Origin: Clostridia bacterium
GTDB taxonomy: Bacteria; Bacillota; Clostridia; RUG12999
Assembly: GCA_045633565.1 (NCBI GenBank)
Contig: JAZQYO010000007.1
Location: 8,724-72,723, forward strand
DNA: 64,000 bases
Reading direction: 5' to 3'
This document shows, one piece after another, positions 2,950 to 55,132 of the stretch; position 1 is the first letter of the stretch, and each line of letters begins with the position of its first letter. The position numbers and the translations under genes were made by a program. Under the pieces are notes generated by a model that saw only the letters and a list, made by a program, of their open reading frames with translations, was not told the origin of the DNA and did no database searches.

Positions 2950-3984
2950 TTAGAACTGTTTTAAAAATCTTACGTCATTTTCAAAGAACAGACGCAAATC
3001 TCTGATGTCAAATCTTCTCATAACAATTCTTTCAAGACCGATACCAAATGCAAAACCGCTGTAAATTTCAGGGTCAATGTTACAGTTTTTCAGAACTTTG
3101 GGGTGAACCATGCCTGCACCTAAAATTTCTATCCAGCCTTCGTTTTTACAAAGTCTGCAGCCTTTTCCGCCACAAGAGAAGCAACGGATGTCCATTTCAG
3201 CCGACGGCTCTGTGAACGGGAAATGATGAGGGCGGAAACGTGTTACTGTTTCTTCGCCATAAAGTTTTTTAGCAAAAAGGTCAAGTGTGCCTTTAAGGTC
3301 CGCCATTGTTACACCTTTATCAACAACAAGTCCCTCAATCTGATGGAAAACGGGGCTGTGTGTTGCGTCAACCGCATCGCTGCGGTAAACACGTCCGGGA
3401 GCAAGAATTCTTATGGGTGGCTGCTGTTTTTCCATTACACGCACCTGCATAGGCGATGTTTGTGTTCTAAGGACGGTGTTTTCGTTTATGTAGAAGGTGT
3501 CCTGAGTATCTCTTGCAGGGTGGTTTTTGGGGATGTTGAGCGCTTCAAAGTTATAGTAATCAAGCTCAATATCCGGACCTTCGGCGATTGAAAAGCCAAG
3601 GCCAATAAAGATGTCCTTGATTTCTTCAAGCACCTGAGCTGTCGGATGAAGTCTGCCTGCAGCATTTTTGTTGCCCGGCATTGTAACGTCAATTTTCTCC
3701 TCTTTAAGCTTCTGTGCGGACATGGCAGATTCCACTTTTTCTTTTGCTGCTTCAAGCTTTGCCTCAATAGATTCCCTTACCTCGTTGGCAATTTTACCAA
3801 CAAGCGGTCTTTCCTCTGCAGAAAGTCCGCCCATACCTCTTAAAACTGCGGTAAGTTCGCCTTTTTTTCCGAGATATTTAATTCTCAAATTTTCAAGTTC
3901 TTCCTTTGCCTTGTCAGGCTGCGTGCTTATGCCGAGGATTTCAGTTTCCGCTGCAACTCTTATTTTTTCCAGCATTTCTTTCAT
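2950..3984 (-). CDS. pheS: phenylalanine--tRNA ligase alpha subunit
   Basis: 344 aa with class II aaRS core motifs (..[17 protein letters not shown].. [16 protein letters not shown]..). pheT follows 14 nt downstream. Confidence 0.95.
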
Positions 3985-4014
3985 AATTCTCTCTCCTTAA
4001 AGTAAAAATTACTT

Positions 4015-4263
4015 ATACAAAAAAATTCCTTCCGCCCACATTGGGACGGAAGGACAATTCCTTACGCGGTACCACCCAAATTCCGGATAAAAATCCGGCA
4101 CTTTTTAAAGATATAACGGTCTTTCCCGGCAAACCCTACTGGCCTTTCAGGTTTGCAGCTCCTGAGCGAACTTCATCTGTCGCTTTTCGCAGAACAGCTT
4201 TCAGCCTGTGGCATGTTCCTCTCTTGGCGTGCTGACGCAGATTACTTTTCTCAATCACAGCTT
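4015..4263 (-). promoter_or_regulatory. T-box riboswitch leader (Phe-specific) with promoter and intrinsic terminator, upstream of pheS
   Basis: Minus-strand sequence AATTTGGGTGGTACCGCG (plus 4065-4082) matches the conserved T-box motif. A terminator hairpin TCCTTCCG..CGGAAGGA (4027-4054) is followed by T-run on the minus strand. A UUC triplet sits in the candidate specifier region (..GAAGUUCGCU..). Promoter TTGCAA(4294-4299)-17-TAAAAT(4271-4276) lies on the minus strand. Confidence 0.8.
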
Positions 4264-4302
4264 TTAAAACATTTTATCACATATTTTTGTCATTTGCAAG
4301 TG

Positions 4303-37995: not shown

Positions 37996-38011
37996 GTGTA
38001 TGAAAATTTAA

Positions 38012-38150
38012 TCGGGGTGCTGATTTTCGGCTGAGAAAGCGATTGCTTAACCCGCGAACCTGATACGGATAATGCCGGCGTAGGAATAATAATCGATTAT
38101 TTTGCTCTACTGGGATTTCCCGGTGGAGCTTTTTTAATCCATCAGGAATT
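38012..38150 (+). promoter_or_regulatory. TPP (thiamine pyrophosphate) riboswitch
   Basis: GGGGTGC..GGCTGAGA..AACCC..GAACCTGATACGGATAATGCCGGCGTAGGAA matches the THI-element consensus (CTGAGA, ACCTGATCTGGATAATGCCAGCGTAGGGAA). The downstream gene is thiT. Coordinates are approximate (+/-2). Confidence 0.85.
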
Positions 38151-41834: not shown

Positions 41835-41919
41835 TGGTGGAGAGAGATGGATTCGAACCATCGAAGGCGGTGCCAACAGATTTACAGTCTGCCCCCTTTG
41901 GCCACTCGGGAACCTCTCC
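41835..41919 (-). tRNA. tRNA-Tyr (anticodon GTA), 85 nt with long variable arm, CCA encoded
   Basis: Reverse complement GGAGAGGTTCCCGAGTGGCCAAAGGGGGCAGACTGTAAATCTGTTGGCACCGCCTTCGATGGTTCGAATCCATCTCTCTCCACCA gives a cloverleaf with 7-bp acceptor, CUGUAAA anticodon loop, GATGG-TTCGAAT-CCATC T-arm and 13-nt variable arm. Confidence 0.9.
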
Positions 41920-41925
41920 AAAAAA

Positions 41926-42001
41926 TGGAGCTGGTGATGGGACTCGAACCCGCGACCTGCTGATTACAAATCAGCTGCTCTACCAATTGAGCTACACCAG
42001 C
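41926..42001 (-). tRNA. tRNA-Thr (anticodon TGT), 76 nt, CCA encoded
   Basis: Reverse complement GCTGGTGTAGCTCAATTGGTAGAGCAGCTGATTTGTAATCAGCAGGTCGCGGGTTCGAGTCCCATCACCAGCTCCA. Acceptor, D and anticodon stems pair. The T-stem has one C-A mismatch. It lies 6 nt upstream of tRNA-Tyr on the same strand. Confidence 0.85.
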
Positions 42002-52142: not shown

Positions 52143-53400
52143 TTTTCAGCCTTTCCGCCGCGGCTTTTCCGGCAACATAGCCGCTGCTCCATGCCCATTG
52201 CAGGTTAAATCCGCCACAGTCACCATAAATATCAAGAACTTCTCCTGCCGCATAAAGACCGGGCAGGATTTTTGATTCCATTGTGGCAGGGAAAAATTCC
52301 GAGGTCAAAATTCCGCCGGCAGTAACCTGAGCATCACGCCAGCCGGTATACCCGGTAATTTCAAACTCCCAGTTTTTTATAATATCCACCAGCCGGGAAA
52401 CATCCTCGTTTGTCAGACTGCCCGACGACCGGCTGAGTTTACCAAAATTTGCTGCTTTAACCAGGATTTTGCCAATCTGTTTATTAAAAATTCCCGAAAA
52501 GAAAAATTCAAGTGGCATGTCGGGGTTTGAATCTATAAGTGATTTTATAATTTTCTTCAGTTCATCTGAGCTTTTTTTGGGCATAAGATCAAGAACAACA
52601 AAGGTTTTTCTGTTGTGGTTCAACGACTTTACCGCATGGCCCGAAAGCTGCAGAATTGGTGGGCCGGAAAGTCCGTAGTCGGTAAATAAAATTTCGCCTT
52701 CTTCGGTTCGCAATGCCTTGCCCGCGGACATAAGTGTAGCTTTTCCGTCAAATTTTATGCCCTGAAGAGATTTGTGCCAGGGGGAAGAGCTTTTGAGCCT
52801 TGTCAGCGCAGGGTAAATGGCGGTTTTTGTGTGACCTAATTTTTCAAACAGCTTAAACGCACTGCCGTCTGTGCCGCATTGCGGACTTGCACTGCCACCG
52901 GTGCAGACTATAATACTGCGTCCATGCATACTGCCGCCCGATTTTGCTTTTACGCCAAAACCGTTTTTGGACGGTTTTATTTCAGCTGCTTCGAAATCTG
53001 TAATTTCGGGAATGTCAAGCTTTTGAAGTTTTAACCGCAAAAGGTCCAAAACCGCCGAAGCCTGACCGCCAAGGGGATAAATTTTCCCGCCATCTTCCTC
53101 TCTTGTCATTATACCAAAAGAGGCAAACAAATCCAGTGTTTTTTCTACGGAAAAATTAGAAAATGCGCTCATTGTAAACTTGGGGTTTTCACCATGATAA
53201 CGGTCAACATTGCACCCTGAGTTTGACAGGTTGCACCTTCCGTTGCCGGTAACAAGAATTTTCTTTCCCACACGGGGAAGCTTTTCCAAAATGGCGATTT
53301 TCAGCCCGGGATTTTCAGTTTTTGCGGCAATTGCAGCAATAATTCCGCTTGCTCCACCGCCGATTATAAGTATATCAAAAGTATTTTTCATATTCTTCAC
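52135..53400 (-). CDS. HI0933/BaiN-like NAD(P)/FAD-dependent flavoprotein (aminoacetone-oxidase family)
   Basis: IIGGGASGIIAA..GNGRCN motif typical of the HI0933 family. GTG start. 8-nt overlap with the downstream flavoprotein gene. Confidence 0.8.
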   Translation of the reverse strand: MKNMKNTFDILIIGGGASGIIAAIAAKTENPGLKIAILEKLPRVGKKILVTGNGRCNLSNSGCNVDRYHGENPKFTMSAFSNFSVEKTLDLFASFGIMTREEDGGKIYPLGGQASAVLDLLRLKLQKLDIPEITDFEAAEIKPSKNGFGVKAKSGGSMHGRSIIVCTGGSASPQCGTDGSAFKLFEKLGHTKTAIYPALTRLKSSSPWHKSLQGIKFDGKATLMSAGKALRTEEGEILFTDYGLSGPPILQLSGHAVKSLNHNRKTFVVLDLMPKKSSDELKKIIKSLIDSNPDMPLEFFFSGIFNKQIGKILVKAANFGKLSRSSGSLTNEDVSRLVDIIKNWEFEITGYTGWRDAQVTAGGILTSEFFPATMESKILPGLYAAGEVLDIYGDCGGFNLQWAWSSGYVAGKAAAERLKNE

Positions 53401-53483
53401 CCTGATAATAGTTTATCATAACTAAAGAGCGATTTCAACTTAAACTTGACAAAAGCCCTGACGCCGTGTAAAATGTTTAATAT

Positions 53484-53507
53484 GCCCCCTTAGTTAAATG
53501 GATATAA
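53484..53507 (+). repeat. 24-nt direct repeat of the 5' end of tRNA-Arg (pseudo-tRNA fragment), 117 nt upstream of the intact gene
   Basis: GCCCCCTTAGTTAAATGGATATAA is identical to tRNA-Arg positions 1-24 (53601-53624). It is followed by a 7-bp/3-nt hairpin (CTGCTCC-TGT-GGAGCAG) but no T-arm. Preceded by TTGACA(53446-53451)-17-TAAAAT(53469-53474). Confidence 0.5.
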
Positions 53508-53600
53508 GAACCTGCTCCTGTGGAGCAGAACCTTGCCGCTCGCTTACGCTCGCGGAACAAGCCCGTTTAACAAAGGCATTTTTCAAAAAACTAAATACTT

Positions 53601-53675
53601 GCCCCCTTAGTTAAATGGATATAACAAGCCCCTCCTAAGGGCTAGTTACAGGTTCGATTCCTGTAGGGGGTGCCA
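53601..53675 (+). tRNA. tRNA-Arg (anticodon CCT), 75 nt, CCA encoded
   Basis: GCCCCCTTAGTTAAATGGATATAACAAGCCCCTCCTAAGGGCTAGTTACAGGTTCGATTCCTGTAGGGGGTGCCA. Acceptor 7 bp (one G-U), D-arm GTTA/TAAC, anticodon stem AGCCC/GGGCT with loop CUCCUAA, T-arm ACAGG-TTCGATT-CCTGT. Terminator hairpin at 53678-53709. Confidence 0.85.
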
Positions 53676-53818
53676 GAAAAGGACTTGCCATAAGGCAAGT
53701 CCTTTTTTATGTCAGACATATCACTTTCTCCATATTTATAGAGTAAAAAACACATTGAGGTTAAAGGAAAGCTGTGTTATTATAATACTAAAGTACATAT
53801 TCTGAAAGGAAGATTAAT

Positions 53819-55132
53819 ATGTCAAGCTATAAAGTTAAAAAAACAGACGGGGATCTCAGCTGGTTTACTCAGGACAGATTCGGAATGTTCATTCATTTCG
53901 GGCTTTATTCCATGCTTTCAAGGCACGAATGGGTAAGGTCAAACGAATCAATTCCCGATGAAGTTTATGACAATCACATAAATTTTTTCAATCCCGATTT
54001 ATTTGATGCGAAAGAGTGGGCAAAAAAGGCGAAAGATGCCGGCATGAAGTATGCGGTTATGACAGCAAAACACCATGAGGGTTTTTGCATGTTTGATTCT
54101 GCATACACCGAATATAAATCAACAAACACACCTGCGAAAAAGGACTTTATAAAAGAATATGTTGAGGCGTTTCGTGAGGCAGGACTTAAGGTGGGCATTT
54201 ACTATTCCCTTTTAGACTGGCATCACCCCGAATATCAGATTGACTTTTTCCATCCGAGAAGAGCAGATAAAAACGCCGAAGAAATGAACAAAAAGCGTGA
54301 TATGGCAAAATACCGTGAATATATGTTTAATCAGGTATGCGAGCTTTTAACAAACTACGGGAAAATTGACATAATCTGGTTTGACTTTACATACCCCGAC
54401 CTTGACAGCATCAGAAATGAATATAACCAGAGATTTATGCCCGATTACAGGGAATGGATGCCCTGGGCAACAAAGGAAACCTGGGATGCGGAAAATCTTA
54501 TTAAAATGATAAGAGAAATAAATCCGGATATTATTATAAACAACAGAACAGGAATTCCGCAGGATATCACAACTCCCGAGCAGACACTCACAACCGAGTG
54601 GCCCAAATACCCCGGCACAGATGAAAATGCGGCGTGGGAATCCTGCCAGACCTTCTCGGGCTCGTGGGGATACTTCCGTGACGAAATGAGCTGGAAAACT
54701 CCCGAGCAGCTTATAAGAATGCTCATCAGCTGCGTACAGGGCGGTGGAAATCTTATAATGAACGTAGGACCTACCTCAAGAGGATATTTTGACAAAAGAG
54801 CGGACAAAGCACTGGGCGTGTTTGCCGACTGGATGAAATATAACCAGCGGTCAATTTACGGCTGCACAAAAGCTGAGCCGGAATTTGAAGCGCCGGTGGG
54901 AACTGCCCTGACGCAGTCTGAAGATGGAAAACGTCTTTACATACACCTTATCGACTATCCGTTTGCCGAAATGAAAATGAAAAATATGGCAGGCAAAATC
55001 GCCTACACCCAGTTTTTGCACGACGGCTCGGAGCTTAAAATCCGCGAAAACAAAGACGGCAGCGTAAACTTTATCATTCCGGGAATAAAACCCGACCAGA
55101 CAATTTCTGTCGTGGAAGTATTTTTAAAATAA
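53819..55132 (+). CDS. alpha-L-fucosidase (GH29)
   Basis: FGMFIHFGLYS.., ..TAKHHEGFCMFDS.., ..YYSLLDWHHPEY motifs of the GH29 family. 437 aa. Confidence 0.9.
   Translation: MSSYKVKKTDGDLSWFTQDRFGMFIHFGLYSMLSRHEWVRSNESIPDEVYDNHINFFNPDLFDAKEWAKKAKDAGMKYAVMTAKHHEGFCMFDSAYTEYKSTNTPAKKDFIKEYVEAFREAGLKVGIYYSLLDWHHPEYQIDFFHPRRADKNAEEMNKKRDMAKYREYMFNQVCELLTNYGKIDIIWFDFTYPDLDSIRNEYNQRFMPDYREWMPWATKETWDAENLIKMIREINPDIIINNRTGIPQDITTPEQTLTTEWPKYPGTDENAAWESCQTFSGSWGYFRDEMSWKTPEQLIRMLISCVQGGGNLIMNVGPTSRGYFDKRADKALGVFADWMKYNQRSIYGCTKAEPEFEAPVGTALTQSEDGKRLYIHLIDYPFAEMKMKNMAGKIAYTQFLHDGSELKIRENKDGSVNFIIPGIKPDQTISVVEVFLK

Follow-up and report, generated by a model that had tools for sequence, protein, structure and literature searches.

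The tRNA-Arg(CCU) gene of the argW type is a classical target of integration. Palindrome-associated elements of the IS200/IS605 type insert 3' of a fixed tetranucleotide, have subterminal hairpins and no inverted repeats, and depend on a Y1 (HUH) transposase acting in trans. Islander (PMC4383910) is a catalogue of tDNA islands, in which fragments of tRNA genes lie displaced at the attachment sites of integrases. In tRNA-dependent lysogeny (Guerrero-Bustamante & Hatfull 2024, PMC10865867), the host tRNA gene is split, the common core being short, and is not rebuilt, and an isotype-matched tRNA supplied by the element replaces the host tRNA. The process was described for actinobacteriophages, with the replacement tRNA lying elsewhere in the phage, and Lj965 of L. 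johnsonii is mentioned in the same work.

The locus studied here lies in a stretch of 64,000 nt from a Clostridia bacterium, the whole of which is called the window. It resembles tDNA islands in that the intact tRNA gene has a partial direct repeat of itself alongside. In contrast to these islands, where a 3' fragment marks the distal end of a kb-scale, integrase-encoding island, the window has a 5' fragment 117 nt upstream of the intact gene and behind the gene's own promoter. When the locus was examined as a possible att remnant, the fragment was found to comprise nt 1-31, only 93 nt were found between the repeats, and no integrase was found within 10 kb.

Organization of the tRNA-Arg(CCU) locus

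The features are listed in Table 1. In order, the object consists of tRNA nt 1-24, a 50-nt insert (hereafter M), tRNA nt 23-31, a 36-nt spacer and the intact tRNA gene. The first-pass annotation had described a TTGACA-17-TAAAAT promoter about 9 nt before a perfect 24-nt copy of the tRNA start, and the positions were confirmed. The promoter matches the consensus at 11 of 12 positions and is the top promoter-like site within 53000-54200, and exactly 9 nt separate its end from the copy. Part 1 of the copy spans the 5' acceptor strand, the 5' strand of the D stem, the D-loop and the TAA of the D-stem 3' strand. This 24-mer (GCCCCCTTAGTTAAATGGATATAA) has two exact occurrences in the 64 kb (53484 and 53601), whereas none is expected in shuffled sequences. 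The copy had been read as 24 nt running into novel sequence; the 24 nt are indeed exact, with imperfect similarity to the tRNA reaching on to 37 nt at 89 %, but tRNA nt 23-31 resume after the 50-nt insert. Part 2 consists of the end of the D stem, nt 26 and the 5' strand of the anticodon stem, and tRNA similarity stops at 53565. Almost all related loci likewise return to tRNA sequence behind M, in agreement with their local tRNA variant.

Table 1. Positions of the features in the window
Feature	Position	Strand	Details
Promoter, sigma-70/sigma-A type	53446..53474	+	TTGACA 53446-53451, 17-nt spacer, TAAAAT 53469-53474
Defective tRNA-Arg(CCU) copy, part 1 (tRNA nt 1-24)	53484..53507	+	24/24 identity with 53601-53624
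Mini-element M, 50 nt	53508..53557	+	Match of covariance model R1; homologous inserts elsewhere
Hairpin P2 of M	53512..53528	+	CTGCTCC-TGT-GGAGCAG; 7 bp, loop TGT
Stem P3 of M	53536..53539 / 53552..53555	+	CCGC/GCGG around TC-GC-TTAC-GC-TC
Defective copy, part 2 (tRNA nt 23-31, AACAAGCCC)	53556..53564	+	Direct sequence reading
Spacer, 36 nt, A/T-rich	53565..53600	+	Between defective copy and intact tRNA; not conserved in L095
Intact tRNA-Arg(CCU), anticodon CCT	53601..53675	+	ARAGORN; Rfam RF00005, 63.4 bits
Intrinsic terminator	53677..53709	+	Perfect 13-bp stem (53677-53689/53694-53706), 100 % complementary; 4-nt loop, T-run
T-box leader	4039..4267	-	Ordinary Rfam match, 131 bits
TPP riboswitch	38003..38104	+	Ordinary Rfam match, 70 bits
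tRNA-Tyr/tRNA-Thr pair	41835..42001	-	Ordinary Rfam/ARAGORN matches

The earlier description of the pseudo-half as lacking a T-arm was borne out, and the 3' acceptor strand is missing as well, so that 53484-53600 fails as a tRNA gene. Neither ARAGORN nor Rfam calls this interval a tRNA, the sole tRNA call here being the intact gene, and no Rfam family matches it at E<=10. The complete tRNA-Arg(CCT) 117 nt further on and its strong terminator hairpin are also as first described. The intact tRNA belongs to the argW-like type, with an AU-rich D arm and an encoded CCA, and the terminator is potentially bidirectional, given the A-run on its opposite side. No promoter-like site was found in the 36-nt spacer ahead of the intact tRNA. 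Transcription of the tRNA would therefore start at the upstream promoter and run across the broken copy. The proposal that the pseudo-half is transcribed as a leader is thus supported by its sequence context, as a genuine fragment behind the sole promoter of the locus.

The leader folds strongly (z -4.5). In the RNAfold minimum free energy (MFE) structure of the predicted precursor (53481-53675), the 3' acceptor strand pairs with the pseudo acceptor strand and not with the tRNA's own 5' strand. The same pairing tendency appears in most related loci, and the pseudo 5' acceptor strand keeps its complementarity to the 3' strand of the intact tRNA in most lineages. Such pairing with the upstream strand might affect tRNA maturation.

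Same-species contigs and an orthologous locus

All the comparative sequences are MAGs or metagenome contigs. The arrangement is identical in contigs with an identical neighbouring flavoprotein, namely assembly GCA_017537325.1 and several metagenomes. In a related species (L095), the same divergent flavoprotein gene is present, and the TTGACA-17-TAAAAT hexamers and their spacing are kept around a different promoter spacer sequence. L095 carries the same M insert with the same hairpin stem as the window, but the 5' part of its tRNA copy has decayed to GCCCCCGTTAGCCCAAATGGATATAC. The 36-nt spacer of the window could not be aligned with that of L095. In contrast, the constant parts of M are about 88 % conserved between the two loci, far above the promoter spacer or the 36-nt spacer, and the stem P3 differs by fully compensatory substitutions (TTAC/GTAA to CCGC/GCGG). 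The conservation of M and the compensatory change suggest that M is constrained where it stands and is not simply a neutral relic. A comparison with orthologous loci had been proposed as a way to tell a conserved leader from a strain-specific scar. In this comparison, the arrangement is shared with the same species and with L095 and is therefore inherited, and the decay in L095 indicates no strong constraint on the tRNA-like 5' part. L095 and another locus, L028, have the downstream genes AzlCD in common.

Scaffold L002/L216, from the same species, shows 99.3 % identity to the window until 11 nt beyond the tRNA CCA (window 53687 onward) and then diverges. Past the break, genes for an S8 peptidase and a protein of 3487 aa (SLH/Flg_new) stand in place of the window's fucosidase/AraC/FGGY/AdhE cluster. 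Either the DNA at the tRNA 3' end has been replaced at the strain level, or the assembly is chimeric. In the Pfam listing of the genes within 10 kb on both sides, no integrase or recombinase was found, in the window and L002/L216 versions alike, and the genes flanking the window locus are ordinary chromosomal genes.

The insert M belongs to a family of small hairpin sequences

In the window, M is composed of GAACC, the hairpin P2, a second GAACC, TTG, the hairpin P3 and AA, and it is inserted in the D arm after ATAA (tRNA nt 21-24). P2 is the 7-bp/3-nt hairpin that had been noticed after the copy. Its place is confirmed, but it does not stand in for an anticodon arm, because it is part of the mobile M and also occurs in phages away from tRNAs. 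The layout of the family is GAACC, a variable P2, GAACC-TTG, a 4-bp P3 around TC-GC-loop-GC-TC, and (A)TAA, after which the tRNA picks up again at the 3' strand of the D stem. Copies range from 45 to 80 bp. P2 varies in sequence and length (11-60 nt), with an apical GAAATCAAAGATTTC common to the long forms, and P3 occurs as TTAC/GTAA, CCGC/GCGG, TTGC/GCAA, TTAT/ATAA, TTGT/ACAA, ATAC/GTAT and ATGC/GCAT. The mismatched loops AAC/AAC and TC/TC are conserved.

In 24 aligned M copies, 95.6 % of the cells are standard pairs, compared with 83.3 % in shuffles (0/500), and double-sided changes were counted in 48 cells against 13.8 expected (0/500); slid-alignment controls reach at most 41 %. In the stems of 39 distinct P2 hairpins, all 376 pairs are Watson-Crick and none is G-U, whereas 60 terminator hairpins of the same loci, used as a comparison set, contain 5.2 % G-U. 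The lack of G-U pairs suggests that P2 behaves as a DNA palindrome, not as an RNA helix selected on one strand.

A covariance model (R1) was built from the tRNA-associated copies of M. With filters off, it gives a single match in the 64-kb window (67.7 bits, E 1e-13), and over about 1.45 Mb of bacterial loci it detects no M away from tRNA-Arg fragments. A regular-expression search likewise found no further M in the window or outside the tRNA-Arg fragments of the bacterial loci, so that within the DNA covered M gave no sign of being a dispersed repeat. Terminal inverted repeats are absent, since there is no complementarity between GAACCTG... at the left end and ...CTCGTA at the right. None of the copies of M was found to have a transposase or recombinase nearby, and literature searches for a described equivalent found nothing.

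Several other identities were considered for M and rejected. It is not a known RNA family, as Rfam 15 gave nothing for the window leader and nothing for the phage copy of M, even at permissive thresholds. As for a leader peptide, an ORF starting at the D-loop ATG does run through M in the window, but the P2 lengths show no 3-nt periodicity from copy to copy, so that no ORF is conserved. A tRNA intron is excluded by the truncation of all M-bearing copies, none of which could yield a tRNA. As for an insulator of tRNA folding, base-pair probabilities of the native and the alternative acceptor pairing were computed for 15 loci, and the wild-type, M-deleted and M-shuffled sequences show no consistent difference. 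The sequence UUGUUACU shared with RAT antiterminator hairpins falls in a covarying helix and is not conserved. Likenesses to integron attC (GTTRRRY in the D arm), dif/Xer sites, CRISPR repeats, and hammerhead and other small ribozymes were considered by eye and dropped.

M occurs alone in phages and is mobile there

Two phage families carry M alone, without a tRNA. In the first, a small ORF and the large terminase gene flank M, which is antisense to the two of them. Three IMG/VR sequences (L129, L138 and L169) have such a stand-alone M, the small ORF being of 95 aa; read on the gene strand, their M is a strong hairpin followed by TTATTTTTTAT, and it may act as a terminator ahead of the late genes. 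In the second family, M is sense-oriented and separates a DUF7307 gene from the gene that follows it in a replication module. R1, although trained on tRNA-associated copies, gives the phage copies 51-52 bits. No annotated relative of the M-bearing phage region was found in INPHARED.

For a comparison of filled and empty sites, 80 relatives of the second phage family were fetched. The filled sites (L257, L262 and L319) read ...cccgcaaATAA[GAACC...GGCTCGTA]ATAAtgaaagg, with an M of 73 nt. In both L258 and L259 the empty site reads ...caaATAAtgaaagg (also given as ...cccgcaaATAAtgaaagg), and their neighbouring protein is 98 % identical; more distant relatives read likewise. The filled and empty sites thus differ by 77 bp, that is, M plus a second ATAA, and the phage family shows what is looked for in MITE-like elements, namely filled and empty sites in near-identical DNA with a target-site duplication. 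M is thus recognizable as an insertion with ATAA on either side. Insertion at ATAA also explains the position of M in the tRNA, whose D arm is GGAT-ATAA-C, the joining of tandem Ms with different P2 at ...TA-ATAA|GAACC, and the confinement of M to non-functional tRNA copies. As judged from these sites, M is a miniature mobile element whose mobility is demonstrated in phages. The family is apparently undescribed, and gut phages are among its carriers.

A viral scan for the X-type junction CCTCCTAAGAATATGTT yielded chance matches in coding regions only. A viral match to the 24-mer (L124, IMG/VR) was set aside as irrelevant, because it comes from a classical 3'-type junction at enterobacterial argW. 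In this prophage junction, the 5' part is of host type and the 3' end of phage type, which produces a C2.A71 mismatch. The 24-mer is also present in enterobacterial argW genes, including that of Kluyvera (L107), the 5' half of this tRNA type being near-identical across phyla.

M-bearing tRNA-Arg fragments in other species

A 24-mer scan with one genome per species returned at least 120 loci, almost all from MAGs of Oscillospirales and other Clostridia. M is present at tRNA-Arg(CCU) fragments in 8-9 of the 120 species loci listed. A further 38 metagenome loci were found by the junction sequence; all have M except L196, a chance match of the junction sequence in a coding region. M always lies at tRNA nt 24/25, with the junction GGATATAA|GAACC..., and the copies that bear it are always truncated and always adjoin an intact, M-free tRNA-Arg(CCU). 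Two classes are seen. In class U, to which the window belongs, the order is promoter, nt 1-24, M, nt 23 to about 32, spacer and intact tRNA. In class D, the intact tRNA and a terminator come first, followed by nt from about 11 to 24, M, nt 23-76 and a terminator. Both classes are present together at one locus in L184 and L192, and units may be tandem. Nearly always, the post-M segment and the acceptor strand fit the local intact tRNA, suggesting that the copies are intragenomic paralogues and not foreign. Where Ms are in tandem, their P2 hairpins differ and the upstream M is usually more decayed, as would be expected if new Ms inserted repeatedly behind the ATAA that closes the right end of an M already in place.

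In L179 (oriented, positions about 3886-4234), a replacement-type unit of spacer plus tRNA has entered a dead copy with M at its anticodon loop and has left untouched the intact tRNA immediately upstream; the dead copy can be read as a decoy target. L178 also joins a replacement-type unit to an M-bearing copy.

Recombination at tRNA-Arg(CCU) genes

By BLAST and ARAGORN, 5' fragments beside an intact tRNA-Arg(CCU) are present in about 30 of the 120 loci listed, or about 25 % of related species; among the loci listed, most species with this tRNA type have no fragment. In about 22 of the 120 species listed, the fragment has no M and ends at the anticodon loop (...CCTCCTAAG, nt 39/40). It is then followed by a spacer of 54-85 nt, in many cases with its own promoter, and by a complete tRNA, often of another sequence type. 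One spacer type (about 85 nt, conserved, with its own promoter) recurs across species, and fossil 5' halves can form arrays of up to three (L090). Loci of this replacement type include L006, L018, L045, L049, L050, L074, L090, L104 and others, and in L006, L050 and L104 ParA/ParB genes, which are typical of integrative elements, lie just downstream. For one 105-nt insertion of the replacement-tRNA kind, L084 and L057 provide a clean pair of empty and filled sites. In outline, the replacement-type loci resemble tRNA-dependent integration, here apparently in Clostridia. At L113 (4220-4295), a consensus promoter precedes a chimeric, non-foldable tRNA in which a type-A 5' half meets a type-B 3' half at the anticodon loop.

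Origin of the locus

We hold, with moderate confidence, that the locus comprises a dead truncated tRNA-Arg(CCU) copy and the mobile mini-element M, co-transcribed as a throw-away leader that probably has no dedicated role in the host. The segment 53484-53564 would be a dead, 3'-truncated copy still in the gene's original place behind the promoter, and the working tRNA a second, complete copy 36 nt on, without a promoter of its own. We infer that transcription begins at about 53481, giving a precursor of roughly 195 nt plus the terminator. RNase P would then cleave at 53600/53601, and a leader of 117-120 nt would be thrown away; the real tRNA would thus be made from a long precursor. M elements would insert at ATAA, leaving ATAA on either side. 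An M that lands in a working tRNA would be lost by selection, and the survivors would be copies in dead, or killed-then-replaced, genes. The dead copy itself would arise from recurrent recombination at this tRNA gene, and either order of events can be envisaged, M killing the gene first or landing in a copy already dead. Counted against this explanation is the fact that bacterial M is seen only in this tRNA, which is odd if ATAA is the sole evident target need.

The first-pass annotation had offered two origins, the footprint of a site-specific recombination event or a deliberately transcribed tRNA-mimic leader. The footprint idea holds in so far as this type of locus is a recombination hot spot, with 5' fragments in about a quarter of related species. 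However, a classical att scar does not fit, since the fragment is a 5' part and neither an integrase nor an element body lies within 10 kb. A broader form of the idea, which we regard as unlikely, is that a recombinase crossover took place in the tRNA 5' half, that the intact copy came with the element, which has since been lost or still lies downstream, and that M is an arm of the att site. The M-free 5' fragments and fossil arrays of about 22 of the 120 listed species, the ParA/ParB element-like genes of L006, L050 and L104, the match of the pattern to tRNA-dependent lysogeny (PMC10865867), the junctions of L178 and L179 and the strain-level synteny break 11 nt after the window tRNA all speak for it. 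However, in the window class the break falls at nt 31-36 with no fixed core, the spacer is promoterless, the flanks are ordinary chromosomal genes without an integrase within 10 kb, and the AzlCD genes downstream are common to L095 and L028. In addition, the fit of the post-M segment and the acceptor strand to the local tRNA argues for an intragenomic duplicate rather than a foreign copy, and M inserts by itself in phages.

The tRNA-mimic leader is unlikely as well. In its general form, the tRNA-like 5' part and M would be a selected cis element, a structured leader or trailer of RNA or DNA hairpins tuning the AGG-reading tRNA, either through competition of the upstream strand for the 3' acceptor or through a protein at the AAC/AAC and TC/TC loops. 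We find this quite improbable, even though the helices covary with conserved loop nucleotides, M is better kept than the neighbouring non-coding DNA when the window is compared with L095, the predicted fold of the leader is strong (z -4.5), the MFE structure of the precursor joins the pseudo 5' strand to the real 3' strand, and at most class U loci the pseudo 5' strand covaries with the acceptor stem present there. Relatives that share the arrangement and show covariation, which had been named as the mark of a conserved leader, were indeed found, but the covariation belongs to the mobile insert and not to a tRNA-like leader. The same M-bearing fragments follow the terminator of an intact tRNA in many species, and the fragment is missing from most species with this tRNA type. 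Phage M has no tRNA nearby, takes either orientation to its neighbouring genes and is polymorphic for presence. Furthermore, the 5' part is decayed in L095, no G-U pair occurs among the 376 stem pairs, and deletion or shuffling of M causes no consistent shift in the predicted native acceptor pairing at 15 loci. Chance resemblance or an assembly artefact might be suspected, as the relatives are all MAG or metagenome assemblies and tRNA genes are prone to contig mis-joins, but this is highly improbable in view of the 24/24 match, with none expected in shuffles, and of the recurrence of the arrangement in independent same-species assemblies and in dozens of independent samples and species.

If a dead copy with a mobile insert is the right reading, promoter-proximal tRNA-like fragments at tRNA-Arg(CCU) genes of gut Clostridia should be annotated as gene remnants and not as new tRNA-like regulators. 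A more far-reaching idea, offered tentatively and with some doubt, is that M represents an undescribed class of ultra-small (45-80 bp) mobile DNA in gut Clostridia and their phages, or else that the dead copies are kept for the benefit of the host. Recognition would then rely on folded hairpins with fixed mismatched loops, not on inverted repeats, with a strong preference for the D-arm ATAA of argW-type tRNA-Arg(CCU) genes, and the insertion of M would kill the tRNA and drive the recurrent architecture of a broken copy plus a replacement copy. Alternatively, the M-bearing dead copies would be decoy landing sites for integrative elements, with L179 as an instance. What makes M of interest is a very small hairpin family with clean filled and empty phage sites and a striking tie to one position of one tRNA gene; should a mobilising enzyme be found, M may turn out to be a minimal substrate of a new kind, used in DNA transposition or in recombination that is structure-specific.

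Comparison with known systems

Like the leaders of Firmicutes (T-box, and the processive antiterminators put and EAR), M lies between a promoter and an RNA and has two hairpins with conserved internal loops. Unlike them, it has no Rfam match and no G-U pairs, takes both orientations, is also found downstream of the tRNA, and is mobile. M comes closer to MITEs, IS200/IS605-derived palindrome-associated elements and REP/REPIN sequences, being short, non-coding and rich in hairpins, with presence/absence polymorphism, a short duplicated target (ATAA) and tandem stacking. However, typical mini-elements measure 100-400 bp, whereas M has 45-80 bp, no terminal inverted repeats and a hypervariable central hairpin; moreover, chromosomal M was seen only at one position of one tRNA gene and not dispersed, and no autonomous partner is known. 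Its constant position after ATAA, the hairpins P2 and P3 and the lack of terminal inverted repeats are compatible with the IS200/IS605 palindrome-associated type; no TnpA was identified for it, and its hairpin sequence is hypervariable.

The likeness to tRNA-dependent lysogeny is seen in the related loci that have a 5' half to nt 39, a promoter-bearing spacer and an intact tRNA. At the window locus, by contrast, the break is at nt 31/32, the intact copy is promoterless and matches the broken one, and the genes downstream are not those of an element. So far, integration that brings a replacement tRNA has been shown in actinobacteriophages, and the present comparison provides evidence that it may be common at the tRNA-Arg(CCU) genes of Oscillospirales, where it would leave arrays of fossil 5' halves. 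For many neighbouring loci, tRNA-dependent integration is the likely history, and for the window it provides the context rather than a class to which the locus itself belongs.
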